A stretch of DNA of 64,000 bases. It comes from a virus. Below the pieces are notes generated by a model. It did no database searches. It was not told the DNA's origin and saw nothing but the letters and a program-made list of their open reading frames with translations. Below are positions 6,334 through 50,719 of the stretch, piece by piece. Every line of letters begins with the position of its first letter. Position 1 is the stretch's first letter. The translations under genes were made by a program, and so were the position numbers. The stretch lies in the IMG/VR virus record IMGVR_UViG_3300013099_000018, positions 40,261-104,260 of that record, one strand, 5' to 3'.

Positions 6334-7365
6334 TTATGCAATGGGATACCTATACTTGGCATGAGTCTCTGGATGTACCACGTCATAGCAATCCCAGTAG
6401 ACATAGTATACCCAAGGGCTAACGATGCGATTCTCGACATCGAGGTACGTTAGTAATTCATCCAACCTTATTAGAGTTAGAGGATTAATCCAATCGTTAG
6501 GATTGACGAGCATGATTCTTGAATTGTTTATCAAGTCTCTTATTCTTAACATTAATGAGTAATTACGCCTATATCTATTGAACCACTCTGGATTGACGTA
6601 CTTAGCAATGTTGTAAACTGATTCAATTATGCAATATATAGCACTCTTGTAACCAACGCAATCGAACATTCTTATCTCGATGGTATCAACGCTCTTAATT
6701 CTATGCCTTCCCTCTTTACGGTTAGTGTTTATGATTATATCATGATACCTATGACTTAAGTTAGCCTCTTCATCATATATCCAGTAATCTTCGTATTCAT
6801 AGTTGTCATAATGCAACGGTAGAGTTCCGATGTGAGGACTTTCAAGTTGTCTAAGACTTAACACTTCACCGTATCTTTCGCTCTTAAATGGAGCGGACAA
6901 TGTAATTCTTGTAATATCGAGAACAAATGGGTACATTGCTAAAGCATGCTCGACCATTCTGCCAAAGCTCATTTCGGGCTTGTAGCTAACGTGAACATGG
7001 AAACCGCAGAACATTCCTCCTTTGATATACGAAACTGGAGCTATGATACATTCTTTTTCTCTTGCAACTCTCGAAACCTCTTTCATTAGCTCGATTAGCT
7101 CATCAGCAACTTCTTTCCAGTCCTCAGAAGGATTAGTTCTAATCTCAAGCTGGTACTCATAGTAGTCTTTGTAAACCCTTTCATCGAACTCTGAGTAAAT
7201 GTCCTCGATTACGTCTTTCTCATTTAGTAGTTCATATCTATCTTCATAGATGTCGATGAGATAGATTTCCATCTCAGCACCAATTACAACCTCTTTTTCA
7301 AACTTAGCCTCTAAAGCTTCTTCCAACCTCGAAAGGAGCATACCCATCACCTCACTTAAATCCAA
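6334..7365 (-). CDS. glutamate-cysteine ligase (GCS2)-like COOH-NH2 ligase (mirror)
   Basis: GAEME, QLEIRT, CGFHVHVS, TIEIR motifs. Confidence 0.8.
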   Translation of the reverse strand: MDLSEVMGMLLSRLEEALEAKFEKEVVIGAEMEIYLIDIYEDRYELLNEKDVIEDIYSEFDERVYKDYYEYQLEIRTNPSEDWKEVADELIELMKEVSRVAREKECIIAPVSYIKGGMFCGFHVHVSYKPEMSFGRMVEHALAMYPFVLDITRITLSAPFKSERYGEVLSLRQLESPHIGTLPLHYDNYEYEDYWIYDEEANLSHRYHDIIINTNRKEGRHRIKSVDTIEIRMFDCVGYKSAIYCIIESVYNIAKYVNPEWFNRYRRNYSLMLRIRDLINNSRIMLVNPNDWINPLTLIRLDELLTYLDVENRIVSPWVYYVYWDCYDVVHPETHAKYRYPIA

Positions 7366-7368
7366 AAA

Positions 7369-8220
7369 TTAGAGGTAAAATCTCCAATCTCTCCAGATAT
7401 CCCATTCTTCCTCAACATGGCAATCGCAGTTTAGTGATTTCCCTTTAACCTTGAACTCGATGAAGTCATTGTATTCTTCTCCGTCTCTTGAATAAACGAG
7501 GAGTTCACAGTCTCTTAAAGCTTTGATTTTCTTGACCCTGATTTCTTCGAGCATCCATCTTTCTGATGCAAACCATAGCTTGCTGTTTTTGAAACCATAG
7601 AACAATGGTCTTTCAAATCTGAATAAAGCAAGTAGGTCATCTTTCTTTGAATATATCCAGAGTGCCATGTCCCCGAAATATATCAAGTAGCTTAAGGCTC
7701 TTTCGAGAGCCTCGATGAAATCATTGTATTTGTTATACTCTTCTTGAATTGCTACTCCTATTTCGAATGAGTCTGTTTCAGGCAAATCCGTTTCAACTTT
7801 ACCAAGTATTTCATAGGTATCGATGTATTCGTAATCGTAATCGAATTTAGAATTTCCACTCCTTATGTCCTTGAACAATGTATATTCGTAAAGCATGCCA
7901 TTGTGAGCAAATACTATATCCTTAAGCTCGAAAGGATGGTTGTTTTTGTTTTTCAATGGGTCTCCAATGGTTGGCTCTCTGGTGTGCATTAGGAACATGT
8001 TTCTACCTACAACAAGCTCACTGAATGGTCTTATCCTATCAATCATCTCGATGACATCTGAAGCACTGGAAGGGAACTTTATCACGTTTTCACCATTGTA
8101 AAAGCCAAAGGCTTTATCGCCTCTCGATTGCAGATAGATTGCTAGCTCGATGAGTCTCTTGGCATCTCTCTTGTCCAGTCTTACATCACCTAATCCCCAA
8201 ACTCCACCTATACCGCACAT
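7369..8220 (-). CDS. class II (Ntn) glutamine amidotransferase (mirror)
   Basis: MCGIGG N-terminus, RG, HTR, NHPF, HNG, TDS. Confidence 0.9.
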   Translation of the reverse strand: MCGIGGVWGLGDVRLDKRDAKRLIELAIYLQSRGDKAFGFYNGENVIKFPSSASDVIEMIDRIRPFSELVVGRNMFLMHTREPTIGDPLKNKNNHPFELKDIVFAHNGMLYEYTLFKDIRSGNSKFDYDYEYIDTYEILGKVETDLPETDSFEIGVAIQEEYNKYNDFIEALERALSYLIYFGDMALWIYSKKDDLLALFRFERPLFYGFKNSKLWFASERWMLEEIRVKKIKALRDCELLVYSRDGEEYNDFIEFKVKGKSLNCDCHVEEEWDIWRDWRFYL

Positions 8221-8349
8221 ACTACCACCTCTACAATAAAATAGTCGAACAAACGTTATATAAACCTTGCGGTATTAATGAGATAGGGATTTAGATATAA
8301 TGGCTTGAGATTCTTTAGAAACGAATAAGGTGGAAAAACAAAAAAGGAT

Positions 8350-8613
8350 TTAATAGTTTTTATATTCCTGAAGTAGCTGGACTATAGATTCTAATCTCGA
8401 CATTAATAGCCTTATATCTTCACCATATTTATCAAGTAACTCTGTGAATGTCTTTAGTACAGTTTCATCTTTGTATTTCATACTGTGTAAGATTACAGCT
8501 ATATGTCCAACTTCTGTTTTTATCTCTCTAAGGCTACTTAGGACTGCTTCCAGCTTACCATAAGTATACCATACTGTTTTTTCCAATTCAACCCTACCCT
8601 CCATCTCAACCAC
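8350..8613 (-). CDS. small helical hypothetical protein (mirror)
   Basis: own promoter and RBS. Confidence 0.75.
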   Translation of the reverse strand: MVEMEGRVELEKTVWYTYGKLEAVLSSLREIKTEVGHIAVILHSMKYKDETVLKTFTELLDKYGEDIRLLMSRLESIVQLLQEYKNY

Positions 8614-8742
8614 CTCTATACCTAACTATGCCATAATTGTTATATAAATCTTGTGGTATTACACTATAGAGGATTAGCAGATAGAACCAAGCTAAACAAT
8701 TTTAGAATTATTACAAAAAAGGAGAAATAATTAAAGAAATAA

Positions 8743-9117
8743 TTAGATTGAAAGTTTTATGATTGGCTCTAGAATGTTCCTGAGTTTTTCAATACCATAT
8801 GCTCCAGTTGCGAATATTGTTAAGTAGTATTCACCAAAACTGTAAGCACAAATGCATGAACCAGGAATTATGCTTGAAATTTTGGATTCATCTCCTTTTC
8901 TCACGACAATACTCGCCTGCACCTCGTAGATGTTCTCTCCGATTTCTGCGACCTTTATCGCACTGTGTGCAAGGATTTTTGGTTGTACTGGCTTGTGTAT
9001 ATAGACTGTTTGACCATCTACATGAACTTCTGCCCCGAATTTCTTTGCTAACTCTTCTACTATTTTTACCATTTCCAATTCAACCCTATCCACCTTAGCC
9101 TTTGCCATCTCAACCAC
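8743..9117 (-). CDS. hypothetical protein (mirror)
   Basis: own promoter and RBS. Confidence 0.75.
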   Translation of the reverse strand: MVEMAKAKVDRVELEMVKIVEELAKKFGAEVHVDGQTVYIHKPVQPKILAHSAIKVAEIGENIYEVQASIVVRKGDESKISSIIPGSCICAYSFGEYYLTIFATGAYGIEKLRNILEPIIKLSI

Positions 9118-9650
9118 CTCTATCTTATCCTATACCGCAATTGCTATATAAACTTTGCGGTATTAGCTCGACATAACAATTAAAACCTCTCGACATATTT
9201 ATAAAAATGGCTCGATGTAAAGGATATCAAGAATATTCCGACAGATGAATGAAAACGGCTCGACATGAGCCTCTTTCGCCCCCCATTCTGGGATTTTTAT
9301 AATTTGATTTTTATAATTTCGCCCCCATGTTAGTCTCCGCCCCCGCCTCCGCATTCTATTGCGGATTTTTATAATTTGGTTTTTATTGTTTTCACCCTTT
9401 GCTAATGTCCATGCCTACCGTGATTTCCTTTTTGGGGTTTTTATAATGCGATTTTTATAATGACTGCCGTGTCATAATGTCTGATTCCCACATGCTGACA
9501 TTTATCGAGCATTTTTATTGTTTTTGTTTTATTTCTGCGATTTTATTTTTCGCCCATGATTTTAAGTAGCAGTATAGGCATATGTCATCATCATGCTTTG
9601 GACTTCCCCCTATAAACCATTCACCGCAAATTCGACACTTTGGCATGTTT

Positions 9651-11060
9651 TCACCCCCAAGCTTTTATCTGGTTTACAACTTTTCTGTCGATGCCTAAAC
9701 TTTCAAGCTTACTGATGAATTCATTGAAGTTGTTACTACTCCATGCTATTTTTGTTAGGATAGTGTTTAGTTTATCATCAGTTTCGACAAAAATAATTTT
9801 AGTTTGTAGTTGTGTTGTTTTGCTTTTAGTTCTATATTTGGTATTTTGCTTAATTGCAAATTTGCTTAAGTCAAATTCAGAATCTGTGGATTCTTCATAT
9901 TTTGGATATTTAAATCGGTATTCTAGAGCTTTTAGTAAGTTTACCCCTAGTTCTTTGCTAAGTTTTATAAGTGGTTTTCTTATAAACTTAATAAGTAGTT
10001 TAAACTTATTCCTAAGATATAGTTTATCTAATTTGTTTAATTCTTTACCATAATAGTTTATCTTTTCATAGATTTCTTTAGTTTTGTTGAAGTTTGGTTC
10101 ATCGAAAGGAATTTCGTAAGTTTTTAGAGCAATTGCTAATAACGTAGCTGTAAGCAAAACATGGTTATCAACGTCTTTAGGTGAATCTGGGAATCTTATT
10201 TCTACAGCATAATCCTTAAGATGTACACAACAGTATTTGTTTATGAAATGGTTTTTGTAGTTGTCATATTCATCTGGGAATTCCTTATATTCATATCTTT
10301 CGTAAGTATCAGGAAAACAAAACATATAGCTAAGCAAATCGCTAAAGAATAGTATATTTGAGGCAATAATTGTATCATAATCGAGCCATGACTTATTGCC
10401 ATTTTCCCAGGAGATATTAATGTGTCCACCACATTTATCTTCAATGCTTATGTTTTCTTTTCCAATTTCTGAAACAATAGCCTTAATAGCATGCCAATAG
10501 TCTTTTAATGAGCTAAATGGTTTAGTAACAAATTCCATGCCACAAGATTCATCGTAATAGTAGTTATCTAAGTATGGTTCAATCTTTGAAATATCAATGT
10601 CATCTAAGCTATAATAGTCATTATATGGGCAATAATCCCTATTGTAAATGTATTCACAATCACTACACCTATCGCAACAATCACACACCAGTTCTTGCCA
10701 CAAATAGTTTTCTTGACAAACTTCGCAAATATCTCTATCATCATTTTCTTCAAGATATCCATGCCTTATTGCGTAATCCCTTATGTCTTCGGGATTACAT
10801 CTTTCGCAATATAGTTGTTCATTTTGGCAATATTCACAAACTGGGCAATTGTCGCAAATTGCACAATAAGAACAGCTTTCACAGTCATAACCGCTTATTA
10901 CTGTTTCGATTTCTGTTCCTATTTTGTACATGAGTTTTGGTTTTATTGCTATTTGCTGTTTTTCCGATTCTTTTCCTGATTCTTCTATTATTTTGTCAAT
11001 AATCTTATCTAACTCCATGTTTAACATTATGGTGTTATTGTTATATAAACTTTGTGGCAT
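9651..11060 (-). CDS. Cys-rich putative amidoligase (mirror)
   Basis: GTEIE, GMEFVT, CGGHINIS, EIRFP. Confidence 0.75.
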   Translation of the reverse strand: MPQSLYNNNTIMLNMELDKIIDKIIEESGKESEKQQIAIKPKLMYKIGTEIETVISGYDCESCSYCAICDNCPVCEYCQNEQLYCERCNPEDIRDYAIRHGYLEENDDRDICEVCQENYLWQELVCDCCDRCSDCEYIYNRDYCPYNDYYSLDDIDISKIEPYLDNYYYDESCGMEFVTKPFSSLKDYWHAIKAIVSEIGKENISIEDKCGGHINISWENGNKSWLDYDTIIASNILFFSDLLSYMFCFPDTYERYEYKEFPDEYDNYKNHFINKYCCVHLKDYAVEIRFPDSPKDVDNHVLLTATLLAIALKTYEIPFDEPNFNKTKEIYEKINYYGKELNKLDKLYLRNKFKLLIKFIRKPLIKLSKELGVNLLKALEYRFKYPKYEESTDSEFDLSKFAIKQNTKYRTKSKTTQLQTKIIFVETDDKLNTILTKIAWSSNNFNEFISKLESLGIDRKVVNQIKAWG

Positions 11061-11850: not shown

Positions 11851-11890
11851 CCCACATTATATTATTACACGTGTAATAATATAATGTGGG
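11851..11890. other. Palindrome apex, putative covalently closed hairpin terminus
   Basis: CCCACATTATATTATTACAC|GTGTAATAATATAATGTGGG, dyad at 11870/11871. Confidence 0.7.
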
Positions 11891-12678: not shown

Positions 12679-12699
12679 TAATGCCACAAAGTTTATATA
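12679..12699 (+). promoter_or_regulatory. Conserved viral promoter TAATRCCRCAA-NN-TTTATATA
   Basis: Same motif at 14576, 15080 and 15464; predicts a leaderless start at ATG 12723. Confidence 0.8.
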
Positions 12700-14090
12700 A
12701 CAATAACACCATAATGTTAAACATGGAGTTAGATAAGATTATTGACAAAATAATAGAAGAATCAGGAAAAGAATCGGAAAAACAGCAAATAGCAATAAAA
12801 CCAAAACTCATGTACAAAATAGGAACAGAAATCGAAACAGTAATAAGCGGTTATGACTGTGAAAGCTGTTCTTATTGTGCAATTTGCGACAATTGCCCAG
12901 TTTGTGAATATTGCCAAAATGAACAACTATATTGCGAAAGATGTAATCCCGAAGACATAAGGGATTACGCAATAAGGCATGGATATCTTGAAGAAAATGA
13001 TGATAGAGATATTTGCGAAGTTTGTCAAGAAAACTATTTGTGGCAAGAACTGGTGTGTGATTGTTGCGATAGGTGTAGTGATTGTGAATACATTTACAAT
13101 AGGGATTATTGCCCATATAATGACTATTATAGCTTAGATGACATTGATATTTCAAAGATTGAACCATACTTAGATAACTACTATTACGATGAATCTTGTG
13201 GCATGGAATTTGTTACTAAACCATTTAGCTCATTAAAAGACTATTGGCATGCTATTAAGGCTATTGTTTCAGAAATTGGAAAAGAAAACATAAGCATTGA
13301 AGATAAATGTGGTGGACACATTAATATCTCCTGGGAAAATGGCAATAAGTCATGGCTCGATTATGATACAATTATTGCCTCAAATATACTATTCTTTAGC
13401 GATTTGCTTAGCTATATGTTTTGTTTTCCTGATACTTACGAAAGATATGAATATAAGGAATTCCCAGATGAATATGACAACTACAAAAACCATTTCATAA
13501 ACAAATACTGTTGTGTACATCTTAAGGATTATGCTGTAGAAATAAGATTCCCAGATTCACCTAAAGACGTTGATAACCATGTTTTGCTTACAGCTACGTT
13601 ATTAGCAATTGCTCTAAAAACTTACGAAATTCCTTTCGATGAACCAAACTTCAACAAAACTAAAGAAATCTATGAAAAGATAAACTATTATGGTAAAGAA
13701 TTAAACAAATTAGATAAACTATATCTTAGGAATAAGTTTAAACTACTTATTAAGTTTATAAGAAAACCACTTATAAAACTTAGCAAAGAACTAGGGGTAA
13801 ACTTACTAAAAGCTCTAGAATACCGATTTAAATATCCAAAATATGAAGAATCCACAGATTCTGAATTTGACTTAAGCAAATTTGCAATTAAGCAAAATAC
13901 CAAATATAGAACTAAAAGCAAAACAACACAACTACAAACTAAAATTATTTTTGTCGAAACTGATGATAAACTAAACACTATCCTAACAAAAATAGCATGG
14001 AGTAGTAACAACTTCAATGAATTCATCAGTAAGCTTGAAAGTTTAGGCATCGACAGAAAAGTTGTAAACCAGATAAAAGCTTGGGGGTGA
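12681..14090 (+). CDS. Putative amidoligase (COOH-NH2 ligase fold) with Cys-rich insertion; probable true start 12723
   Basis: GTEIE, GMEFVT, CGGHINIS, EIRFP motifs; many CxxC pairs after the first motif. Confidence 0.75.
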   Translation: MPQSLYNNNTIMLNMELDKIIDKIIEESGKESEKQQIAIKPKLMYKIGTEIETVISGYDCESCSYCAICDNCPVCEYCQNEQLYCERCNPEDIRDYAIRHGYLEENDDRDICEVCQENYLWQELVCDCCDRCSDCEYIYNRDYCPYNDYYSLDDIDISKIEPYLDNYYYDESCGMEFVTKPFSSLKDYWHAIKAIVSEIGKENISIEDKCGGHINISWENGNKSWLDYDTIIASNILFFSDLLSYMFCFPDTYERYEYKEFPDEYDNYKNHFINKYCCVHLKDYAVEIRFPDSPKDVDNHVLLTATLLAIALKTYEIPFDEPNFNKTKEIYEKINYYGKELNKLDKLYLRNKFKLLIKFIRKPLIKLSKELGVNLLKALEYRFKYPKYEESTDSEFDLSKFAIKQNTKYRTKSKTTQLQTKIIFVETDDKLNTILTKIAWSSNNFNEFISKLESLGIDRKVVNQIKAWG

Positions 14091-14193
14091 AAACATGCCA
14101 AAGTGTCGAATTTGCGGTGAATGGTTTATAGGGGGAAGTCCAAAGCATGATGATGACATATGCCTATACTGCTACTTAAAATCATGGGCGAAA

Positions 14194-14450
14194 AATAAAA
14201 TCGCAGAAATAAAACAAAAACAATAAAAATGCTCGATAAATGTCAGCATGTGGGAATCAGACATTATGACACGGCAGTCATTATAAAAATCGCATTATAA
14301 AAACCCCAAAAAGGAAATCACGGTAGGCATGGACATTAGCAAAGGGTGAAAACAATAAAAACCAAATTATAAAAATCCGCAATAGAATGCGGAGGCGGGG
14401 GCGGAGACTAACATGGGGGCGAAATTATAAAAATCAAATTATAAAAATCC
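14194..14450 (+). repeat. Array of (A/T)ATAAAAA half-sites in 14-bp-spaced pairs, pairs 72 bp apart
   Basis: half-sites at 14194/14208/14222, 14282/14296, 14354/14368, 14426/14440; same motif as the telomere repeats. Confidence 0.8.
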
Positions 14451-14575
14451 CAGAATGGGGGGCGAAAGAGGCTCATGTCGAGCCGTTTTCATTCATCTGT
14501 CGGAATATTCTTGATATCCTTTACATCGAGCCATTTTTATAAATATGTCGAGAGGTTTTAATTGTTATGTCGAGC

Positions 14576-14596
14576 TAATACCGCAAAGTTTATATA
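14576..14596 (+). promoter_or_regulatory. Conserved viral promoter
   Basis: TAATACCGCAAAGTTTATATA. Confidence 0.8.
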
Positions 14597-14623
14597 GCAA
14601 TTGCGGTATAGGATAAGATAGAG

Positions 14624-14998
14624 GTGGTTGAGATGGCAAAGGCTAAGGTGGATAGGGTTGAATTGGAAATGGTAAAAATAGTAGAAGAGTTAGCAAAGAA
14701 ATTCGGGGCAGAAGTTCATGTAGATGGTCAAACAGTCTATATACACAAGCCAGTACAACCAAAAATCCTTGCACACAGTGCGATAAAGGTCGCAGAAATC
14801 GGAGAGAACATCTACGAGGTGCAGGCGAGTATTGTCGTGAGAAAAGGAGATGAATCCAAAATTTCAAGCATAATTCCTGGTTCATGCATTTGTGCTTACA
14901 GTTTTGGTGAATACTACTTAACAATATTCGCAACTGGAGCATATGGTATTGAAAAACTCAGGAACATTCTAGAGCCAATCATAAAACTTTCAATCTAA
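14624..14998 (+). CDS. hypothetical protein (probable start ATG 14633)
   Basis: promoter, GAGGTGG RBS, T-rich tract downstream. Confidence 0.8.
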   Translation: MVEMAKAKVDRVELEMVKIVEELAKKFGAEVHVDGQTVYIHKPVQPKILAHSAIKVAEIGENIYEVQASIVVRKGDESKISSIIPGSCICAYSFGEYYLTIFATGAYGIEKLRNILEPIIKLSI

Positions 14999-15079
14999 TT
15001 ATTTCTTTAATTATTTCTCCTTTTTTGTAATAATTCTAAAATTGTTTAGCTTGGTTCTATCTGCTAATCCTCTATAGTG

Positions 15080-15100
15080 TAATACCACAAGATTTATATA
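15080..15100 (+). promoter_or_regulatory. Conserved viral promoter
   Basis: TAATACCACAAGATTTATATA. Confidence 0.8.
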
Positions 15101-15127
15101 ACAATTATGGCATAGTTAGGTATAGAG

Positions 15128-15391
15128 GTGGTTGAGATGGAGGGTAGGGTTGAATTGGAAAAAACAGTATGGTATACTTATGGTAAGCTGGAAGCAGTCC
15201 TAAGTAGCCTTAGAGAGATAAAAACAGAAGTTGGACATATAGCTGTAATCTTACACAGTATGAAATACAAAGATGAAACTGTACTAAAGACATTCACAGA
15301 GTTACTTGATAAATATGGTGAAGATATAAGGCTATTAATGTCGAGATTAGAATCTATAGTCCAGCTACTTCAGGAATATAAAAACTATTAA
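15128..15391 (+). CDS. small helical hypothetical protein (probable start ATG 15137)
   Basis: promoter, RBS, T-run right after the stop. Confidence 0.8.
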   Translation: MVEMEGRVELEKTVWYTYGKLEAVLSSLREIKTEVGHIAVILHSMKYKDETVLKTFTELLDKYGEDIRLLMSRLESIVQLLQEYKNY

Positions 15392-15463
15392 ATCCTTTTT
15401 TGTTTTTCCACCTTATTCGTTTCTAAAGAATCTCAAGCCATTATATCTAAATCCCTATCTCAT

Positions 15464-15484
15464 TAATACCGCAAGGTTTATATA
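15464..15484 (+). promoter_or_regulatory. Conserved viral promoter
   Basis: TAATACCGCAAGGTTTATATA. Confidence 0.8.
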
Positions 15485-15520
15485 ACGTTTGTTCGACTAT
15501 TTTATTGTAGAGGTGGTAGT

Positions 15521-16372
15521 ATGTGCGGTATAGGTGGAGTTTGGGGATTAGGTGATGTAAGACTGGACAAGAGAGATGCCAAGAGACTCATCGAGCTAGC
15601 AATCTATCTGCAATCGAGAGGCGATAAAGCCTTTGGCTTTTACAATGGTGAAAACGTGATAAAGTTCCCTTCCAGTGCTTCAGATGTCATCGAGATGATT
15701 GATAGGATAAGACCATTCAGTGAGCTTGTTGTAGGTAGAAACATGTTCCTAATGCACACCAGAGAGCCAACCATTGGAGACCCATTGAAAAACAAAAACA
15801 ACCATCCTTTCGAGCTTAAGGATATAGTATTTGCTCACAATGGCATGCTTTACGAATATACATTGTTCAAGGACATAAGGAGTGGAAATTCTAAATTCGA
15901 TTACGATTACGAATACATCGATACCTATGAAATACTTGGTAAAGTTGAAACGGATTTGCCTGAAACAGACTCATTCGAAATAGGAGTAGCAATTCAAGAA
16001 GAGTATAACAAATACAATGATTTCATCGAGGCTCTCGAAAGAGCCTTAAGCTACTTGATATATTTCGGGGACATGGCACTCTGGATATATTCAAAGAAAG
16101 ATGACCTACTTGCTTTATTCAGATTTGAAAGACCATTGTTCTATGGTTTCAAAAACAGCAAGCTATGGTTTGCATCAGAAAGATGGATGCTCGAAGAAAT
16201 CAGGGTCAAGAAAATCAAAGCTTTAAGAGACTGTGAACTCCTCGTTTATTCAAGAGACGGAGAAGAATACAATGACTTCATCGAGTTCAAGGTTAAAGGG
16301 AAATCACTAAACTGCGATTGCCATGTTGAGGAAGAATGGGATATCTGGAGAGATTGGAGATTTTACCTCTAA
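15521..16372 (+). CDS. class II (Ntn) glutamine amidotransferase
   Basis: N-terminal Cys nucleophile (MCGIGG), RG, HTR, NHPF, HNG, TDS. Confidence 0.9.
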   Translation: MCGIGGVWGLGDVRLDKRDAKRLIELAIYLQSRGDKAFGFYNGENVIKFPSSASDVIEMIDRIRPFSELVVGRNMFLMHTREPTIGDPLKNKNNHPFELKDIVFAHNGMLYEYTLFKDIRSGNSKFDYDYEYIDTYEILGKVETDLPETDSFEIGVAIQEEYNKYNDFIEALERALSYLIYFGDMALWIYSKKDDLLALFRFERPLFYGFKNSKLWFASERWMLEEIRVKKIKALRDCELLVYSRDGEEYNDFIEFKVKGKSLNCDCHVEEEWDIWRDWRFYL

Positions 16373-16375
16373 TTT

Positions 16376-17407
16376 TTGGATTTAAGTGAGGTGATGGGTA
16401 TGCTCCTTTCGAGGTTGGAAGAAGCTTTAGAGGCTAAGTTTGAAAAAGAGGTTGTAATTGGTGCTGAGATGGAAATCTATCTCATCGACATCTATGAAGA
16501 TAGATATGAACTACTAAATGAGAAAGACGTAATCGAGGACATTTACTCAGAGTTCGATGAAAGGGTTTACAAAGACTACTATGAGTACCAGCTTGAGATT
16601 AGAACTAATCCTTCTGAGGACTGGAAAGAAGTTGCTGATGAGCTAATCGAGCTAATGAAAGAGGTTTCGAGAGTTGCAAGAGAAAAAGAATGTATCATAG
16701 CTCCAGTTTCGTATATCAAAGGAGGAATGTTCTGCGGTTTCCATGTTCACGTTAGCTACAAGCCCGAAATGAGCTTTGGCAGAATGGTCGAGCATGCTTT
16801 AGCAATGTACCCATTTGTTCTCGATATTACAAGAATTACATTGTCCGCTCCATTTAAGAGCGAAAGATACGGTGAAGTGTTAAGTCTTAGACAACTTGAA
16901 AGTCCTCACATCGGAACTCTACCGTTGCATTATGACAACTATGAATACGAAGATTACTGGATATATGATGAAGAGGCTAACTTAAGTCATAGGTATCATG
17001 ATATAATCATAAACACTAACCGTAAAGAGGGAAGGCATAGAATTAAGAGCGTTGATACCATCGAGATAAGAATGTTCGATTGCGTTGGTTACAAGAGTGC
17101 TATATATTGCATAATTGAATCAGTTTACAACATTGCTAAGTACGTCAATCCAGAGTGGTTCAATAGATATAGGCGTAATTACTCATTAATGTTAAGAATA
17201 AGAGACTTGATAAACAATTCAAGAATCATGCTCGTCAATCCTAACGATTGGATTAATCCTCTAACTCTAATAAGGTTGGATGAATTACTAACGTACCTCG
17301 ATGTCGAGAATCGCATCGTTAGCCCTTGGGTATACTATGTCTACTGGGATTGCTATGACGTGGTACATCCAGAGACTCATGCCAAGTATAGGTATCCCAT
17401 TGCATAA
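16376..17407 (+). CDS. glutamate-cysteine ligase (GCS2)-like COOH-NH2 ligase (start probably 16394 or 16400)
   Basis: GAEME, QLEIRT, CGFHVHVS, TIEIRMFD. Confidence 0.8.
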   Translation: MDLSEVMGMLLSRLEEALEAKFEKEVVIGAEMEIYLIDIYEDRYELLNEKDVIEDIYSEFDERVYKDYYEYQLEIRTNPSEDWKEVADELIELMKEVSRVAREKECIIAPVSYIKGGMFCGFHVHVSYKPEMSFGRMVEHALAMYPFVLDITRITLSAPFKSERYGEVLSLRQLESPHIGTLPLHYDNYEYEDYWIYDEEANLSHRYHDIIINTNRKEGRHRIKSVDTIEIRMFDCVGYKSAIYCIIESVYNIAKYVNPEWFNRYRRNYSLMLRIRDLINNSRIMLVNPNDWINPLTLIRLDELLTYLDVENRIVSPWVYYVYWDCYDVVHPETHAKYRYPIA

Positions 17408-25453: not shown

Positions 25454-25543
25454 AACTTAAAATCTGAGTTACTTAATAAAAACCTTTCGCTTACATAAGT
25501 AAGATAGAAAGGTTTATAAATGTAAGTAGATATAGTATCTACC

Positions 25544-25966
25544 ATGAGCAAGGATAAAGTTTTCGTTAAATTCGATGACTGGAACGCTTTAGACAAAAGA
25601 GATTTGGTAAAAATAATATCTTTGAACTTTCTCGGAGAAATAGGACAAAAGCTATTAGTCATAGCAAACATAAACGACAGACTTCTTGAAGAACTGGACA
25701 GACTTTCCAAAAACGTAAACCTAAAATTCCACAAAAACGTGTTTGAAAAAGCCTCTTTGATATATTGTATTTTAAAGCAATTCATAGGATTCGAAAAGAC
25801 AGAACCAACATCAACCGACAGATATGCTGTAATCATTGCTTTGATAAAATTACTCATAGAGTATGCAAGAGACTATGGTAACTTTATAATTGAATTCTCT
25901 GTTGAAGAGATGCAGAAATTAGGAGGAATAGCTAAAAGAGAAGGTGAGAAAAACAATGACTCTTGA
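25544..25966 (+). CDS. hypothetical protein
   Basis: BRE/TATA upstream, leaderless. Confidence 0.8.
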   Translation: MSKDKVFVKFDDWNALDKRDLVKIISLNFLGEIGQKLLVIANINDRLLEELDRLSKNVNLKFHKNVFEKASLIYCILKQFIGFEKTEPTSTDRYAVIIALIKLLIEYARDYGNFIIEFSVEEMQKLGGIAKREGEKNNDS

Positions 25967-26279: not shown

Positions 26280-26280
26280 G

Positions 26281-26922
26281 GTGATAAGTATGTTAATTAA
26301 AAACGATGCACCTAATTTTATTTTTAAGAACAAGTTAGGAGAAGACTACTATGAAGTTCTATGGTATATTTTAGAAAACGGCGAAATATATGTTAGTGAA
26401 AGAGAGCAACCTTATTTGGAAGCAGAGCCAATAACGATTACAGTCATAGAGCCAGTCATGGACAAGCCTTCAAAAGTTCTTCCTCAATACATAGTTCAAC
26501 GATGGGGTGAACAATTTATCTTTGATTACGCTACAAGAGTGGCTTGGTGTATAAAAGAGCCTGGTATGTGGTCTTACTCATACGGAGAACGTTTAGCATA
26601 TAAAAACCAAATTGAAAACATAATCAAGAAACTCAAAAACAATCCCGACACAAGACAAGCTACAGCAGTTCTATACAGACCAGAAGATACATCTAATCCA
26701 GAACCACCATGTTGGTGTATCATAGATTTCAAAATACGAAATGGAAAACTAAGAACGTTTGCATGGCTTAGAAGCAACGACATGGAAAATGGATATCCAC
26801 CAGACTACTTTGCTATTCTAATGTTGAGCTACAGAGTTTCAGAAGAATTAGGAGTTGAAATAGGTAGAATTACTACACGTTCCGAGTCAGCACATATCTA
26901 TATTCGTAACTTAAAGAATTGA
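26281..26922 (+). CDS. thyA: thymidylate synthase (ThyA)-family protein, possibly dCMP (hydroxy)methylase
   Basis: YSYGERL, TRQA, PPC (catalytic Cys144), RSND, SAHIY; Asp175 at the pyrimidine-specificity position. Confidence 0.85.
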   Translation: MISMLIKNDAPNFIFKNKLGEDYYEVLWYILENGEIYVSEREQPYLEAEPITITVIEPVMDKPSKVLPQYIVQRWGEQFIFDYATRVAWCIKEPGMWSYSYGERLAYKNQIENIIKKLKNNPDTRQATAVLYRPEDTSNPEPPCWCIIDFKIRNGKLRTFAWLRSNDMENGYPPDYFAILMLSYRVSEELGVEIGRITTRSESAHIYIRNLKN

Positions 26923-26955
26923 TTTCTGTTTAACTCTAACCAACTTTTTTAATTA

Positions 26956-27854
26956 TTGCAAAAGTAAAACCTAAAAGCTTATATAGGTAAGGAGTTATAA
27001 TATACTATAGAGGTGATGCTATGATAAGGGGTTTAGGTGGAAAGGCTATAAAGAGGTTGTTTAAGCAATTATTCAACAAGAAGGAGATTTATAGAGTTTG
27101 CAGAGAACAAGACCTATGGCTATGGGAAAAGTTCAAAGGGTATAAAGTTAGTGAAAGTGTCTGGAAGAGAGTACCACTATGTATAGCTCCTACATACATC
27201 TACACAGACCCCTATTTCCACGACAAATCACTAAAGTCATTACCATCACTCAACATAACTAATTTCTTCGTTGTAGAGTTAGATGTTGATGAACTAATAT
27301 CATCTGACGGTCATCTATACCCATGCTACTATTATGCCTTTGATGTCAATGAGCTTAGAAATGTCGTTGTTCGAAAATATGTCCACATTGAACATATAGT
27401 TCTAATGCATGAGTTTGAGGTTTTCACTCTACAAGACTTGAACATCGAAAACATAAAAACGGTATACACAAGCAATATCTTTGTAAAAGAGTTCTTCGAA
27501 AAGCATGGTATTAAAGTAAAGGATTGTGATAAAATCGACAAAGAGCTTTTCAGAGAAGCTTTTAAGACTACAATATTGCTTAGGAAGGTTTACACTAATG
27601 TCGTTGAGGGTAAAATGCCTAATGATTATCGCAAGGTCTTAGTTAGAACTTGCAATATATATAACAACTTACTTAATGATTTGCTTGATAAGTTAGATGT
27701 CTCAAGAGTTCAATTAGAAGAAGCTATACACATACCAAGTATGTGGAATGTTGTAGAAATCTTAGACAAAAGAGCCGTGTTGTATTGTTAACATCTTTTT
27801 TAGCTTTTTTATTTTCGTCTTGCAAAAGTAAAACCTAAAAGCTTATATAGGTAA
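26956..27854 (+). promoter_or_regulatory. Exact 35-bp direct repeat containing a TATA box (26956-26990 and 27820-27854)
   Basis: TTGCAAAAGTAAAACCTAAAAGCTTATATAGGTAA upstream of two consecutive genes. Confidence 0.85.
27021..27791 (+). CDS. hypothetical protein
   Basis: 256 aa, promoter and GAGGTGAT RBS. Confidence 0.8.
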   Translation: MIRGLGGKAIKRLFKQLFNKKEIYRVCREQDLWLWEKFKGYKVSESVWKRVPLCIAPTYIYTDPYFHDKSLKSLPSLNITNFFVVELDVDELISSDGHLYPCYYYAFDVNELRNVVVRKYVHIEHIVLMHEFEVFTLQDLNIENIKTVYTSNIFVKEFFEKHGIKVKDCDKIDKELFREAFKTTILLRKVYTNVVEGKMPNDYRKVLVRTCNIYNNLLNDLLDKLDVSRVQLEEAIHIPSMWNVVEILDKRAVLYC

Positions 27855-34468: not shown

Positions 34469-35587
34469 TTGTTAATGGTGGGTAGGGTAGTATATATCTC
34501 ACCTTTGCAAGCAGAATCAATGTTAAACCAAGCTAACTTATTCAAAAAGCTATTGCAAGAATGCGGTTATGATGCAGTATTCAAATCTACTATTACAGTT
34601 GAAGATTTGAACAACGATGATATTGCTGGAGCTATATGGTTTCAATTAGCTACTATCAATTTCATAGGTGATGCTATAGTCCCATACATACTTGGCAAAA
34701 AACCTAAAGTACTATACGTTACAATCGAGGGAGTACCTACAAGGGGAAATGTAGCACATTCAAATCTAAAAAGATGCGAATTCGTAGCTGTAAGCAACTT
34801 TGTTAAAGAATGCTTACAATCAGTAGGGTTGAAAGTTAGAAATGTAGTTCATCATGCCATCGACTGGAAACTCTGTGGTGAAATCCACAAGAAGAACATA
34901 ATCCAAAGAAGGCAAATCCAACAATACGCAAAAGACAGAGTTAAGTTCATAGTAGTTGCGAGAGATGACCCTCGCAAAAACCTTAAAGGGTTAGCAGAAG
35001 CTATGAGAATTCTAAATAAGAAGGGTTACGAAAAGGACTATGTAGTATTTTTAATCACCGAAGACTCTGCCAAACAGAAGTTTGAAGGTATAAATAATGC
35101 TGTGTTTATAAAAGGTTTTGGCGGTTCAGCACATGAATTCATTTTAGGCTATATGGCTTGCTGTGATTTCCTCATTCATCCTGCATTCAGTGAAGGTTTT
35201 GGACTTCCAGTCCTTGAGGCAAATGCTGTGAGTAAACCAGTAATACACGTAGATGCTCCCCCAATGAATGAATTTACCTCACCAGATTTCAATTTCATGT
35301 TCAATTACATCGATAAGCAAGCAGTAAAATGTAACATGTATCAATATTGGATATTTCATATCTTCACTCCAGACATGCTCGCCGAAATGATTGCTTACGC
35401 AATTGACATTTACAAAAACCACAAAGACGAATATCAAGAATATTGTACAAAGGCAAGAGAGTGGACAAAGAACTGGGATTATCATGTTAAATATGCCGAA
35501 CTAATGAGAGAACTTAAGTTGGCAATTCCAAGAGATTTAATAGATTATGTAAAGCATGGTTTGGATTGGATAATCGAAATAAAGTGA
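34469..35587 (+). CDS. GT-B (GT4-like) glycosyltransferase
   Basis: AVS, PRKN, EGFGLPVLEA. Confidence 0.92.
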   Translation: MLMVGRVVYISPLQAESMLNQANLFKKLLQECGYDAVFKSTITVEDLNNDDIAGAIWFQLATINFIGDAIVPYILGKKPKVLYVTIEGVPTRGNVAHSNLKRCEFVAVSNFVKECLQSVGLKVRNVVHHAIDWKLCGEIHKKNIIQRRQIQQYAKDRVKFIVVARDDPRKNLKGLAEAMRILNKKGYEKDYVVFLITEDSAKQKFEGINNAVFIKGFGGSAHEFILGYMACCDFLIHPAFSEGFGLPVLEANAVSKPVIHVDAPPMNEFTSPDFNFMFNYIDKQAVKCNMYQYWIFHIFTPDMLAEMIAYAIDIYKNHKDEYQEYCTKAREWTKNWDYHVKYAELMRELKLAIPRDLIDYVKHGLDWIIEIK

Positions 35588-37398: not shown

Positions 37399-38742
37399 GT
37401 CAGCTACCCCGCCCTAAAGGGCGGAGCTTGCTCGACCTCTCCTAACGGAGAGGGAGCATCGGGACGGCTGACAAACGCCCCGTTTTGAAGAGATTTCAAA
37501 ACCCTTAACATAATATTTTTAGCACCGACAATATCTGCATGTTCTTTGAATCCACAATTCTTACATTCGAATTCTTTACCATTTCTATTTTCTTTAGCAG
37601 TGTAACCGCATACTGGACAACTTATTGATGTGCATTGCGGATTCACATAAACTACCTTACTTCCGTAGAGCTTAGCTTTGTACTCGATTAGGGTTTGAAG
37701 CTCTCTGAAACACCACTGGCTAAACAACCTTCTTTTCTCTCCCTTGAACTTAGCGTTGTTTTCTCTGAATTCTCTAATGCCTTCTAAGTCCTCCAAACCG
37801 AAAACACAAGGTGAGTTCTCTACTACAATCTTCTTAGCAACGACATGGAGGAAATTTCTAACCAGCCGTTTCTCGACTCCGCTAAGAGACAACAAACGCC
37901 TCTTAGCGGAGCGAGTGCCTTTAGCCTGAAGCTGTGAGCGTAACTTCTGATAATGGGATTTCAATCTCAAAACTTGTTGAGAGAATTCGATAAGCTTAGA
38001 TTTGCCTAAACTATCATGCAAAGCTACAAAACTATTGGAAGGTTCGTTTATATCAACTCCGACAACCTTCTTAGGCTTGAGTTCCTTATCAGGAACATCT
38101 ACAGATACAATAAGATACCAGAGCTTGTTACTCCTCTCGTAATAAAGAATGGCATCTCCGTAACCGTATTTCTCAATATATTCGTAGTGTTTGTTCCAAC
38201 CATAGTAAGGTATTTTCTTCAATCTTTCACCGATAACCGAGATTGAACAAACTCTTGGATTTAGCTTTAAATCATAGCTCCTTCTTTTAACGAGCTTAAC
38301 AATCAGTTTTTTCCTTCTAATTGGTTTTCCAATCTCTTTATAGAATAGTTCGATTAACTTCTTACGATTTCTCTTCGAGATATTAAATTTCTCAGCTAAC
38401 TGGTTAAAGACAGAATCGTAATGTTGAGCAACCTCTCTGATAACTGAAATAGCAATCTGAGACTGAAAACCATACTTCTCTTTGAGTTTGTAGTATAAAG
38501 CCTTATGCAAACTAATATGGTCAAAAACACGATTGTTAAAAGCGTATTCGCTAATTTCGTTAAATGCATCTCTATACTTTTTGGCTAAATCCAAAATCTT
38601 CTGCTTTTGCTCCTTCGTAAGTTCAAGCTTAAATTTCACAGATATTGTAACCATTCATTGAGTTGTGAAAAATTTAGATATTTAAGTGTTGCGGTACTCC
38701 TCTCCGCTTTGAAAAGCGAAATTTCCGCACCGCTATTATTTT
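37399..38742 (-). mobile_element. IS200/IS605-family TnpB-only (IS1341-like) element, 1344 bp
   Basis: right end CAAGCTCCGCCCTTTAGGGCGGGGTAGCTGAC hairpin; left-end subterminal hairpin; TTCAT immediately 5' of the left end; no TSD; no tnpA. Confidence 0.85.
37404..38654 (-). CDS. tnpB: RNA-guided endonuclease TnpB
   Basis: RuvC D-E-D in GVDIN / LEDL / HADIVGA, CPVC-CKNC Zn finger. Confidence 0.93.
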   Translation of the reverse strand: MVTISVKFKLELTKEQKQKILDLAKKYRDAFNEISEYAFNNRVFDHISLHKALYYKLKEKYGFQSQIAISVIREVAQHYDSVFNQLAEKFNISKRNRKKLIELFYKEIGKPIRRKKLIVKLVKRRSYDLKLNPRVCSISVIGERLKKIPYYGWNKHYEYIEKYGYGDAILYYERSNKLWYLIVSVDVPDKELKPKKVVGVDINEPSNSFVALHDSLGKSKLIEFSQQVLRLKSHYQKLRSQLQAKGTRSAKRRLLSLSGVEKRLVRNFLHVVAKKIVVENSPCVFGLEDLEGIREFRENNAKFKGEKRRLFSQWCFRELQTLIEYKAKLYGSKVVYVNPQCTSISCPVCGYTAKENRNGKEFECKNCGFKEHADIVGAKNIMLRVLKSLQNGAFVSRPDAPSPLGEVEQAPPFRAG

Positions 38743-46247: not shown

Positions 46248-49200
46248 ATGAAAACAATCTATTACTTATATCCAATACGCAACAAGGTTAGCTTTACCTT
46301 TATATCTAAGCAACACATTAGGTATCTAAAGCAAAAGTTAAAGAACAATGTAAAAATAATAGAAACAGATGTAGACACTTTTGACCCTTCTGCATGGGGG
46401 TTTAACCGTAAACTTATACTCCATCCACTCTTTTATCCATTCTTCGAAGGAGTAAGTAAAGAAGCTAATGCCAAAATAAGTAAACTTAACCAATGCCTCA
46501 ACAAAGGTTTCAAGATTATAGCTTTCGATACGGCAGATTCTGACAGAATTTCCGAAAAAGCAGTAGATTTAGCTAATAAAGTTGAAGCAATAATAGTTCC
46601 ATCTAACTTTGCCAAGAAAGCATTTGTAGATAGTGGCGTATATAAACCAGTTCACGTAGTACCTCATGGAATTCCAGATGAGTTTATGGTTAATGGTAAA
46701 ACAATAACTCATCCAGATTTGGCTAAGCTCAAAGAATTCAAGGAGAAAAACAAATTCATACTTGTTCATTTCAATGTTACACATTGCTATGATGAAGAAA
46801 CGAGAATCCTCACTAAGGAAGGTTTCAAAAAATGGAATGAGATATCCAAAGATGACGAAATTGCCACTTTCAACCTAAAGACTGGTGAATTAGAGTATCA
46901 GAAACCAGAAGAGATATTTATATACGAATATAAAGGTAAGATGATTCATTTCAAAGGACAACACTATGACCTCTTAGTTACTCCAAACCACAGAATGGTA
47001 GTTAGAAAGTCAAGACGGTATGTAGCTCCACAAAACAGAAATAAGGTTAGAGAATGGAAAATTAAAGAAGCATTCGAATTACTAATCAATCGCAATTGGG
47101 TTAAATATGAAATTCCAAGAGTGGTTAAATGGAAAGGTGTTCACAAAGAATATTTCGAGATTGATAAGAAATTGAACGAGAAACTACATTGCAATGTTAG
47201 ATATAAGCATGATAAATTGCCTATAAAACCATTTCTAAGGTTCTTGGGATGGTTCATATCGGAAGGACAAGCAAGATACAATGAACATAACCATGAAGTT
47301 TTTATAGCGATTTGGAACAACAAGGGTGAATACTTGAAAGAAATAGCAGAAACTATAAAGGAGTTGGGCTATCATCCAGTTATAGATTACAATAAGAAAT
47401 GCGTAATAGTTAGTTCAGTTCAACTATACGAAATCATCAAAGCACTTAGATTACCAGTTCACCCAGAGGTTAAAGGTAAGAAAGCTCATCTAAAGTTTGT
47501 TCCAGATTTCATAAAGGAACTTTCTCCAGAGCTTATAAAAGAGTTTCTTATGGCACTATGGAAAGGAGATGGAACTTTCTATAAAACAAAGGATGGAAAA
47601 ACCATACCATTGAAATATTCTACAACAAGTAAAAAGCTTGCAGAGGATATAGCTGAACTATGCTTGAAATGTGGATATGCTGTGAGTATAAATGTTGATG
47701 ATTGTGTAAAAAGACTTAATAAAGGGCATCATCCACTATATAATGTCGTAGTTTCGGTTAGATATGCTAATCCAAGTATGAATAACAAACCAGAAGTCAT
47801 AGATTACGAAGGAATAGTTTGGTGTGTCAAAGTTCCAAATGGGGCGGTTATAGTTGAGAGAAATGGCAAAATCGTAGTTTCTGGAAACTCAGGATTCCGT
47901 AAGGGTTGCGATTTATTCGCAAAAGCTATGTCTATCGTTCAAAAGGAGAATCCAAATATCATAATTTTGGCAAAGAGGCTTGAAGGATTAGACCCATACT
48001 TACCTCTATTAAGACAATTGAAATGCGTAGAGGTTGGCGGTTATCTTGAATTGGATGCTTATAGGCGACTTTATGACTTGACTGACATTACAGTTCTTGC
48101 ATCACGAGGGGGAGGGTTTGAGTGCGTTCCACCAGATACAAAGATAATATGCTACGATGGAGTCAAGCCAATCTCAGAAGTGAAAGAGGGAGATTTAGTT
48201 CTAACACATAAGGGAAGGTTTAGAAAGGTTACAAGAGTGTTTAAGAGACATTACAAAGGTAAGATTATAGAGATAATACCTTATGGTTTCTCTAAAGTTA
48301 GCATCAAATTAACACCAGAGCATCCAGTTTTAGCTATAATTAGGAAAGGCAATGCAAGGAACTCAATTAACTCTAACTTAGAATGGGTAGAAGCTAAGGA
48401 GTTGAAAAAAGGAGATTTTGTCGTATTTCCAATACCATCAAACAATTGTGAGAATATAGTCTATGATTTAGCAGAATTCTCTAATGATGGTAGTTTAGTA
48501 GTTGAGGATGAGTGGATATACTACAATAGGACAGGTTCTCCGAGATTTACAGAAATCAGCTACAAAGATATAGAAAAGCTAACTAATGAAACAAAGAAAA
48601 TAGTTTGTAAAGCTGTTAAAGCTTACAAAGGTGAATTGAATACGAATTCTGATAGGGTAAAGAAAGTTGTAGAGTTTCTAAGAAAGATAAACTATGAACC
48701 TCAATATGTAAAAATAAAGAGATTCGTTAAATTTGATAAATACTTGGCAAAGGTTATAGGATATTACTTAGCAGAAGGGAGTATTTCAGCAAAAGGACGT
48801 GCAGTGGAGTTCAGTTTTGGTGAAGAACCAGAACTTGTATTAGATTTAGTAAATGCAATAATACATGCTTTCAATTATATACCATCGGTAAAGCAATACT
48901 CTGATAGCAAAGTAACAAAAGTAATCATTTCAAATAAAGTTATTGCCAAATTCTTGGAAACATTATGTGGCAAAAAAGCTCATGGTAAAAGAATTCCATT
49001 AGATTGTTACAGGTTGGATTTAGACACAATATCATGGCTAGTATGGTCAATGATACTTGGAGATGGATGCGTTAAAGATAATCTCATAAGATATGCTACG
49101 GTTTGCGATAATCTTGCTTTTGGAATCTACACATTGTTAGTTAAACTTGGATATAAACCAAGAATCGAATGTCTTGTCCAAAGAACATATATTAGACCAA

Positions 49201-49801: not shown

Positions 49802-50704
49802 GTGTTGGTTATGGGTGAGATTGTCGAACATCTTGATTTGAAATATTATGTCGATGAAAACTATCCAGCATCAAGAGAGCCTATTAGAGAAAATGAGTCA
49901 CATGTTCTTGGATTCTGTATAATAATAGCAGATAGAAATAAAGTATTCGTAGATGTAGGAGCTTGTACTGGTAAATACTCCATACCCATGAGCAAACACT
50001 ATGGTATGGTTATAGCAATAGAACCCAACCCTAAAAACATCGAATTCTTAAGGAAAAACATAGAACTTAACAAATGTGATAATATTGTAATAATAGATAA
50101 AGCAGTATCAAACACTAAAGGTAAAACTAAATTAGCTTTAAAAGGTTCTCAAAGCTTTATAGAAGCTTACAATGTGAAAGATTCAATAGAAGTTGAAACA
50201 GATACCTTAGACAACTTAATCGAAAAAGCAGATGTGATAAAGATTGATGTTGAAGGTGCTGAACTAAAAGTCATAGAAGGTTCTGAAAGGATAATTGACG
50301 AGCATAAACCTATCTTTGTAGTAGAGCATAACGAATACTGGAGCGGTGATAAACCCAAAACCCATCTGGACATAATGAAAAAGCTCATAGCTAAAGGCTA
50401 TTATCCATTCAACTACAACTATGTTCATTGGATTTATGTTCCGAAAGAAAAAATATCCAACTTTGCAGGACAACTTTCTGAATACGCTCAGGGAAGGTTG
50501 TTATCCCATCATATCTTCTACGAAATTATTATTAAGAATATCAAAGAAGGTAAACCTTGGTATTACGGGTTGCCTAACACATGGTGGCATGGTGTGAGTA
50601 TTTTAGAATTTGTCTCGGTGTTAGTTCATAAAGCTCCTTATGAAAAGGAGTGGTTAGACCTTTACAAGAAGACAATATTTAACAACTATGGTTTTAAAAT
50701 TTGA
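49802..50704 (+). CDS. FkbM-family SAM-dependent methyltransferase
   Basis: VDVGACTG, IEPNP, KIDVEGAE. Confidence 0.9.
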   Translation: MLVMGEIVEHLDLKYYVDENYPASREPIRENESHVLGFCIIIADRNKVFVDVGACTGKYSIPMSKHYGMVIAIEPNPKNIEFLRKNIELNKCDNIVIIDKAVSNTKGKTKLALKGSQSFIEAYNVKDSIEVETDTLDNLIEKADVIKIDVEGAELKVIEGSERIIDEHKPIFVVEHNEYWSGDKPKTHLDIMKKLIAKGYYPFNYNYVHWIYVPKEKISNFAGQLSEYAQGRLLSHHIFYEIIIKNIKEGKPWYYGLPNTWWHGVSILEFVSVLVHKAPYEKEWLDLYKKTIFNNYGFKI

Positions 50705-50719
50705 TACAGAGGTGGTATC

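Follow-up and report, generated by a model that had tools for sequence, protein, structure and literature searches.

Modification of cytosine at the nucleotide level, before replication, by relatives of thymidylate synthase (ThyA) is a classic anti-restriction device of tailed phages. Aspartate at the position of E. coli Asn-177 goes together with dCMP or CMP as substrate in these enzymes, the natural examples being T4 gp42, MilA, RB69 gp48 and DLP3 gp80, and the N177D and N229D replacements turn thymidylate synthase into a dCMP enzyme according to the earlier work summarized in the same paper (PMC13326640, its refs 46, 58, 60, 61). In addition, asparagine at position 169 is the mark of the flavin-dependent 5-hydroxy-dCMP synthases, and an acidic residue at position 143 is said to accompany non-methyl products (PMC13326640). 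The aspartate rule derives, however, from bacterial, phage and Streptomyces enzymes and not from the short archaeal subfamily, the chemistry of which is poorly characterized (PMC9931769). Our literature search returned no report of nucleotide-level cytosine modification, including that by a dCMP hydroxymethylase, in archaeal viruses.

We analyzed a stretch of 64,000 nucleotides from an IMG/VR virus record, referred to below as the window, which carries a ThyA-family ORF containing PEPPCWC and RSNDMENGYPPDY as read from its translation. The TATA-like box at 25513, the overlapping or abutting ORFs, the GGTGAT motif followed by an ATG at 26290 and the T-tract after the stop codon together suggest a three-gene operon in which the ThyA gene is the last:

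25513..25520, + strand: TATA-box-like TTTATAAA, ~24 nt 5' of the ATG at 25544, read from the sequence; putative promoter element
25544..25966, + strand: operon gene 1, 140 aa, all-helical; conserved upstream of ThyA in loci L008, L009 and L011
25944..26279, + strand: operon gene 2, 111 aa, with its stop 1 nt before the ThyA ORF; conserved with ThyA in L008, L009 and L011
26280..26292, + strand: Shine-Dalgarno-like GGTGAT (26280-26285), then ATG at 26290; probable true ThyA start
26281..26922, + strand: ThyA-family ORF, Asp-type, short methanogen-type; 213 aa from GTG, 210 aa from ATG
26944..26950, + strand: T-tract 3' of the ThyA stop; probably the transcript end
26978: TATA-like box, with a Shine-Dalgarno (SD) motif, before the next gene at 27021

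The element TTTATAAA is the probable promoter of this operon. Because GGTGAT lies just 5' of the ATG at 26290 and the closest homologue (P0001) begins at the equivalent methionine, this ATG appears a likelier start than the GTG of the ORF; residue numbers depend on the choice, and Asp-175, counted from the GTG as throughout this text, becomes Asp-172 when counted from the ATG. No Pfam, PHROG or Atlas match was obtained for operon genes 1 and 2 or for the ORFs downstream of ThyA, and the AlphaFold2 model of the 140-aa operon protein is poor (pLDDT 51). The idea that this protein might be a MazG-like dCTPase was dropped for lack of support, PF03819 giving no match. Directly 3' of the ThyA gene, with the TATA-like box and SD motif listed above as its own, is a 256-aa ORF (27021-27791) that has no family match and is missing from the otherwise syntenic loci L008 and L009; it looks like a recent insertion.

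The window protein scores 56.9 bits on PF00303 (Thymidylat_synt; cut-off 24.3, E 2.3e-15) and also matches the PHROG thymidylate synthase families (PHROG 160, E 2.5e-22). Its best NCBIfam model, TIGR03283, describes the methanogen-type thymidylate synthase and is spanned end to end (window residues 13-212 on model positions 2-199 of 201), with a score of 117.5 bits that lies below the equivalog cut-off of 174.55. This is unlike ORF59 of Methanobacterium virus PhiF1 (MK994522), which ranks first among the named matches in the phage collection, at 29.5% identity, and scores 187.1 in the same run. The window protein stops 6 residues past H205-I-Y207 and is without the ~55-residue C-terminal part of bacterial ThyA; since the 201-position methanogen-type model is covered from end to end, we take this absence to be the normal architecture of the subfamily and not a truncation. 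Methanogen-type enzymes such as PhiF1 ORF59 have the same architecture of ~200-215 residues ending just past H-x-Y, and PhiF1 ORF59 has in common with the window protein the catalytic Cys, R166, S167, D169, H207 and Y209 (E. coli numbering), an acidic residue at the position of L143 and a hydrophobic one at that of H147. The window protein departs from this type at the base-reading position, which has Asp in place of Asn, and beside the catalytic Cys, where it has Trp.

The AlphaFold2 model of the protein, built with 14 homologues, has a pLDDT of 92.7 and a pTM of 0.90, and compares with ThyA-family structures at VIA Z 17.6-20.8 (18-21) over ~190 residues and at Foldseek E ~1e-14. The top structural match is the dCMP hydroxylase AfhB of phage HY126 (9iqu, Z 20.8; 9iqc, Z 20.5), which has 24% identity and a similar length, while the CMP hydroxymethylase MilA gives Z 19.7 and ordinary thymidylate synthases give Z ~18. 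The predicted fold is therefore closest, by a small margin, to the dCMP/CMP-modifying ThyA relatives, a ranking that we treat as non-decisive because the best Z is only ~2 above those of ordinary thymidylate synthases. The solved complex of the N229D mutant with dCMP (1njc) is among the best sequence matches found with HMMER.

Residues were mapped by phmmer/HMMER to solved thymidylate synthases, by MAFFT/hmmalign with E. coli ThyA and the reference enzymes, and by hhalign (probability 99.7%). In all three independent alignments RSNDMENGYPPD lies without a gap on E. coli RSxDvflGxPfN, lRSNDMENGYPPD of the window protein pairing with qRSxDvflGxPfN. The original prediction had placed Asp-175 at the position of Asn-177 and noted PPCW in place of PPCH, and both readings are right, with Trp-145 falling on His-147. 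The active-site segments are as follows:

26701..26715, + strand: E141-P-P-C144-W145, with Glu at the E. coli L143 position, the catalytic Cys equivalent to C146, and Trp at the H147 position
26770..26805, + strand: R164-S165-N-D167-M-E-N-G171-Y-P-P174-D175, equivalent to E. coli R166, S167, D169 (kept, folate-type) and G173, with Asp at the N177 position
26803..26805, + strand: GAC codon of D175, equivalent to E. coli N177, the specificity position
26893..26901, + strand: H205-I-Y207, equivalent to E. coli H207 and Y209, ligands of the deoxyribose 3'-OH

Moreover, Tyr-101 and Arg-125 correspond to E. coli Tyr-94 and Arg-126, and Gln-126 occupies the position of Arg-127, where Gln is found across the whole clade, Asn-type members included. 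The equivalents of E. coli Glu-58 and Trp-80 could not be placed in the window protein by sequence or profile alignment. In the same alignment the residues at positions 143, 169 and 177 are Asp, Asp and Asp in T4 gp42, which agrees with what had been said of the T4 enzyme, Glu, Asn and Asp in RB69 gp48, Asp, Asp and Asn in an SPO1-type dUMP hydroxymethylase (Goe10 gp29), and Glu, Asp and Asn in PhiF1 ORF59. The reference enzymes thus reproduce the published signatures (PMC13326640), and by the same signatures the window enzyme is of predicted cytosine type at position 177 and of folate/pterin type at position 169. Position 143 does not discriminate in this way. Among the 150 closest cluster representatives, drawn from a library of 1.8 billion proteins, this position is nearly always occupied by E, D, N, H or S, whatever the residue at 177. 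We therefore rejected acidic-143 as a discriminator of hydroxymethyl products, E/D/N/H being normal in nearly the whole short archaeal subfamily, including its Asn-type members and PhiF1 ORF59; with Glu at 143 normal for the subfamily, Glu-141 does not separate a methyl from a hydroxymethyl product.

Our main reading is that the gene encodes an active, dimeric, short archaeal-type pyrimidine C5 one-carbon transferase of the ThyA fold, the preference of which has probably been switched from dUMP to dCMP by the Asn-to-Asp change; we put its probability at roughly 0.55. The evidence of position 169 bears directly on another possibility, namely that the protein belongs with RB69 gp48 and phage HY126 AfhB among the flavin-dependent 5-hydroxy-dCMP synthases. 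These two enzymes and DLP3 gp80 (PMC13326640) include the closest solved structures, resemble the window protein in length and share with it the combination of Asp177 and Glu143. The window enzyme, however, retains Asp-167 and so is without the diagnostic D169N change, which RB69 gp48 does show in the same alignment, and this disfavors a flavin hydroxylase. The small Z margin over ordinary thymidylate synthases argues in the same direction, as does the tree described below, which puts the gene in the archaeal short clade and not with RB69. In addition, a flavin hydroxylase would need O2, a poor fit if the setting is, as suspected, an anaerobic vent, and no arabinose or other sugar-nucleotide pathway adjoins the gene. 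We consider this reading highly improbable.

A phylogeny with ThyA and dCMP hydroxymethylases, the check proposed alongside the original prediction, locates the origin of the aspartate. Asn occupies the base-reading position in 151 of the 164 short-type rows and Asp in the other 13, and there are 13 close homologues of the window protein (57-96% identity), all of them from metagenomes. In the maximum-likelihood tree the Asp clade (the window protein, P0001-3 and P0005) lies inside a 19-row, otherwise Asn-type archaeal clade with support of 100/98, its nearest neighbor (P0004) being Asn-type, and P0017 represents a second, independent Asn-to-Asp change. T4 gp42 joins E. coli ThyA on long branches and does not group with the window enzyme. 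The two therefore belong to separate lineages, and the window protein is the shorter, although they are alike in having the ThyA fold, Asp at N177, an acidic residue at L143 and D169 kept, and in being virus-encoded enzymes acting before replication. The Asp form is a young clade nested in Asn-type viral relatives.

The codons support a simple history. The metagenome scan gave 14 loci, of which five are Asp-type, eight are Asn-type and one (L020) ends before the site. GAC is the codon in all five Asp-type loci, so that the window makes six Asp-type contigs, and AAC is found in the nearest Asn-type loci, with AAT in the rest; this pattern corresponds to one transition, AAC to GAC. The presence of the identical codon in five further contigs means that the aspartate is not a sequencing error, and the ThyA-fold gene with Asp at its base-reading position is confirmed as real. 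Between Asp-type genes dS is 0.65-1.2 and dN/dS is 0.09-0.15. A dN/dS of ~0.1 over a dS of ~1 implies that the aspartate has been held by selection over substantial divergence and that the gene is not decaying. These values also bear on the view that a viral thymidylate synthase survives here only as a decaying or non-catalytic remnant, to which the replacement of one phosphate-binding Arg by Gln (R127Q) and the missing C-terminal part of bacterial ThyA might seem to point. Both features are, however, common to the whole subfamily, Asn-type members included, the catalytic Cys and the other ligands are intact, and the gene has its own SD motif inside the operon, so that we find a remnant hardly credible.

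Only a few columns split the six core Asp-type proteins from the Asn type, and these are concentrated around the pyrimidine pocket, namely W145 (versus L/M), P174 (versus S/A/N/G/I), D175 itself, I179 (versus L/M) and A129. P0005, although Asp-type, retains L145, S174 and C129, and looks intermediate between the Asp-type core and the Asn type by its sequence. Trp at position 147 is present in 5 of 13 Asp-type rows, among them the distant and independent Asp-type lineage P0061, versus 1 of 151 Asn-type rows; because these counts are not phylogenetically independent, the association of Trp147 with Asp is suggestive only. Phylogeny, purifying selection and the pocket substitutions all strengthen the proposal that the specificity has moved from dUMP to dCMP, which nevertheless stays a prediction from sequence.

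Asn-type relatives at other loci give some indication of the ancestral role. In L014 (6998-12283) an Asn-type member is flanked by the anaerobic ribonucleotide reductase NrdD (E 7e-173) on one side and by an NrdG-like activase of the radical SAM type on the other, in what looks like an ordinary dNTP-supply module, and this setting suggests that the family originally served dTMP synthesis, from which the Asp form has departed. The same locus has two TnpB-like genes further downstream. The loci L010 (Asp) and L012 (Asn) are syntenic, with a flanking DUF2284 gene that is 93% identical, and here the Asn and Asp versions differ by as little as ~15%. Both carry tandem ThyA-family genes (L010:5215-9057; L012:848-5348), of which copy 1 has Asp in L010 and Asn in L012, and copy 2, a divergent ThyA paralogue, keeps the Cys in L012 and has Ser in L010. 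Their flanks encode DUF2284, two or three radical SAM/SPASM enzymes, an XPD-like helicase and HMG-CoA synthase, and these loci could be a base-hypermodification cluster or a cellular island. No intact Asn-type enzyme is left in either of the Asp-type genomes examined, those of the window virus and L010.

The 104,260-bp IMG/VR record is a perfect palindrome, matching its reverse complement without a single mismatch, with its center at 11870/11871 of the window (dyad ...ATTACAC|GTGTAAT...) and the mirrored part at window positions 1-23741. Every gene, ThyA included, is consequently present twice in the record. The unique genome, which we take to be complete, is window 11871-64000 (52,130 bp, ~34% GC), and the palindrome would stem from a head-to-head replicative dimer, from reading through a hairpin end that is covalently closed, or from an artefact of assembly. 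Capsid genes of the Sulfolobus rod-shaped/filamentous-virus type (PF12193, together with a weak SFV1 VP4-like match) place the virus among the filamentous archaeal viruses of Adnaviria. A contig scan of 185,579 species genomes gave no close relative.

The original prediction described the modification pathway as incomplete in the window, and the same is true of the 52-kb genome as a whole. Pfam scans, run on every sizeable ORF, and six-frame family searches, which could miss divergent unannotated ORFs, revealed no recognizable dUTPase, MazG-type dCTPase, dNMP/thymidylate kinase, dCMP deaminase, ThyX, second ThyA or DNA polymerase. Six-frame translation of the entire record gave no match to PF00692, PF03819 or PF02223, and none of the ORFs of the genome matched a nucleotide-kinase family; Walker-A-like strings occur only in a TnpB-like protein, a 2012-aa structural protein and an unannotated 233-aa ORF. 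This is a difference from T4, which has the gp56 dCTPase and the gp1 dNMP kinase. As no viral partner enzymes were recognized in the genome, incorporation of a modified nucleotide would rely wholly on host enzymes, and without a viral dCTPase the replacement of cytosine would probably be partial.

It had also been suggested that the modified base might be glycosylated further by one of the viral GT-B enzymes, and this link does not hold for the glycosyltransferase at 34469-35587, which adjoins the capsid genes. It is the glycosyltransferase of isolated rod-shaped Sulfolobales viruses, with tblastn matches in 44 of their records, and none of these viruses is among the 30 best matches listed for the window ThyA protein. 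We rejected DNA glycosylation by this enzyme, a core conserved rudivirus-type glycosyltransferase that gives no support for a DNA glycosyltransferase such as might act alongside a T4-like enzyme. The other glycosyltransferases are intein-bearing and GT4-like and lie in the structural half of the genome, where large genes at 46248-49796, 56339-57916 and 58302-60593 carry intein/Hint modules, one with LAGLIDADG and two splitting GT4-type glycosyltransferases. The region 49802-51553 encodes an FkbM-family methyltransferase and, after it, an ORF with weak similarity to sulfotransferases, both probably acting in virion glycan or protein modification. A TnpB/Cas12f-like (OrfB_IS605) gene occupies the opposite strand at 37404-38654 (-). 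The terminal module at 12681-17407 (mirror 6334-11060) encodes a class-II glutamine amidotransferase (PF13522), includes a 469-aa ORF that matched nothing, and gives a weak, below-cut-off match to the phiEco32-type COOH-NH2 ligase (PF14395); a role for this module in elaborating a modified base is pure speculation.

A genome of this composition brings into play the explanation that the enzyme is still a dUMP-methylating thymidylate synthase serving dTTP supply, in which the aspartate is tolerated, for example in a protonated state, so that the replacement has almost no effect on fitness. Outside the small Asp clade every close relative is Asn-type, one of them in the NrdD/NrdG module, and the NCBIfam model that fits best, the methanogen-type thymidylate synthase, is matched along its entire length. 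Moreover, the virus has neither another thymidylate synthase nor accessory enzymes of a cytosine pathway, and its AT-rich genome implies a high demand for dTTP. Against this explanation, the N177D and N229D mutants lose the preference for dUMP and gain dCMP activity according to the references summarized in PMC13326640, and every experimentally characterized natural Asp enzyme that we aligned, or that is described in that paper, acts on a cytosine nucleotide. The aspartate is, in addition, fixed under purifying selection with accompanying changes in the pocket, and the TIGR03283 score falls short of the equivalog cut-off. We regard an ordinary thymidylate synthase that tolerates Asp as unlikely, yet as the main rival of the dCMP enzyme.

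It is improbable, in our view, that the enzyme acts on a cytosine nucleotide not bound for DNA, such as CMP in the case of MilA, or that it mainly drains the host dCMP pool. MilA is among the top structural matches, and the genome offers no viral kinase or dCTPase that would channel the product into DNA, both of which are consistent with such a role. The ligands of the deoxyribose 3'-OH, His-205 and Tyr-207, are nevertheless retained, in line with dNMP enzymes, the surroundings of the ThyA gene show no natural-product cluster, and the relatives are found in DNA-precursor contexts.

We therefore return to the enzyme switched from dUMP to dCMP, for which the most likely function is that of a dCMP C5 methylase or hydroxymethylase and which hints at modified cytosine in the viral DNA. 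The most economical interpretation of the residues and the tree would be a natural replay of the N177D/N229D experiment, in which a viral short archaeal thymidylate synthase was retuned to dCMP and then kept. Among dCMP methylases, of which the dCMP methyltransferase activity of phage Xp12 is another example, the L. casei N229D and E. coli N177D mutants reach dCMP by the single Asn-to-Asp change that the tree shows to have occurred naturally here; the mutants, unlike the short window enzyme, have a long bacterial scaffold with Leu at position 143. In the proposed mechanism Cys-144 would attack C6 of dCMP, Asp-175 would hydrogen-bond and protonate N3 and the 4-amino group, as in T4 gp42 and the N177D/N229D mutants, and a reduced pterin (folate or an archaeal analogue) would give a methylene group to C5. 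Reduction of the resulting intermediate would then yield 5-methyl-dCMP, or its hydration 5-hydroxymethyl-dCMP. Parsimony from the Asn-type relatives (one of them in a dNTP-supply context), the product of which is itself a predicted one, favors the methyl product, and hydration would be permitted by the acidic residue at 143 together with an active site that is open and has no tail. For the modified nucleotide to reach viral DNA, kinases and a polymerase of the host would have to accept it, and protection from host nucleases would be the likely benefit. An argument against this reading is that cytosines substituted at C5 are prone to deamination, a price that would seem high should the host be a hyperthermophile.

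A joint reading of these observations, which we offer as tentative and would not support at even odds, is that an Adnaviria virus exchanges some or all of its cytosine for 5-methyl- or 5-hydroxymethylcytosine by means of one viral enzyme together with host kinases and the host polymerase, and that near-identical viruses toggle the gene between an Asn form (thymidylate) and an Asp form (cytosine) in an arms race with host nucleases. In its boldest version the product would be elaborated further by the viral amidoligase/glutamine-amidotransferase, methyltransferase, sulfotransferase-like or glycosyltransferase genes. If the joint reading were true, this virus would be, as far as our literature search shows, the first among archaeal viruses with a pathway for base modification at the nucleotide level. 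What is new is the adnavirus setting, the very recent Asn-to-Asp change with syntenic Asn/Asp pairs, and the fact that no accessory enzyme was found; the switch residue appears on a poorly studied short archaeal scaffold, in a virus without recognizable replication or nucleotide-salvage genes. The pair formed by L012 and L010 is a natural experiment on how few changes retune pyrimidine specificity, and the system would test whether host enzymes alone carry modified dCMP into DNA. Confirmation would affect the sequencing and cutting of metagenomic archaeal virus DNA and the way in which archaeal defense systems are read.

Gordonia phage Sixama gp179 (L007:271-1119) is annotated as a thymidylate synthase, yet shows the D143/D169/D177 signature of a 5-hydroxymethyl-dCMP synthase and adjoins a thymidylate kinase gene. 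This signature and the neighboring kinase suggest that Sixama probably modifies cytosine.
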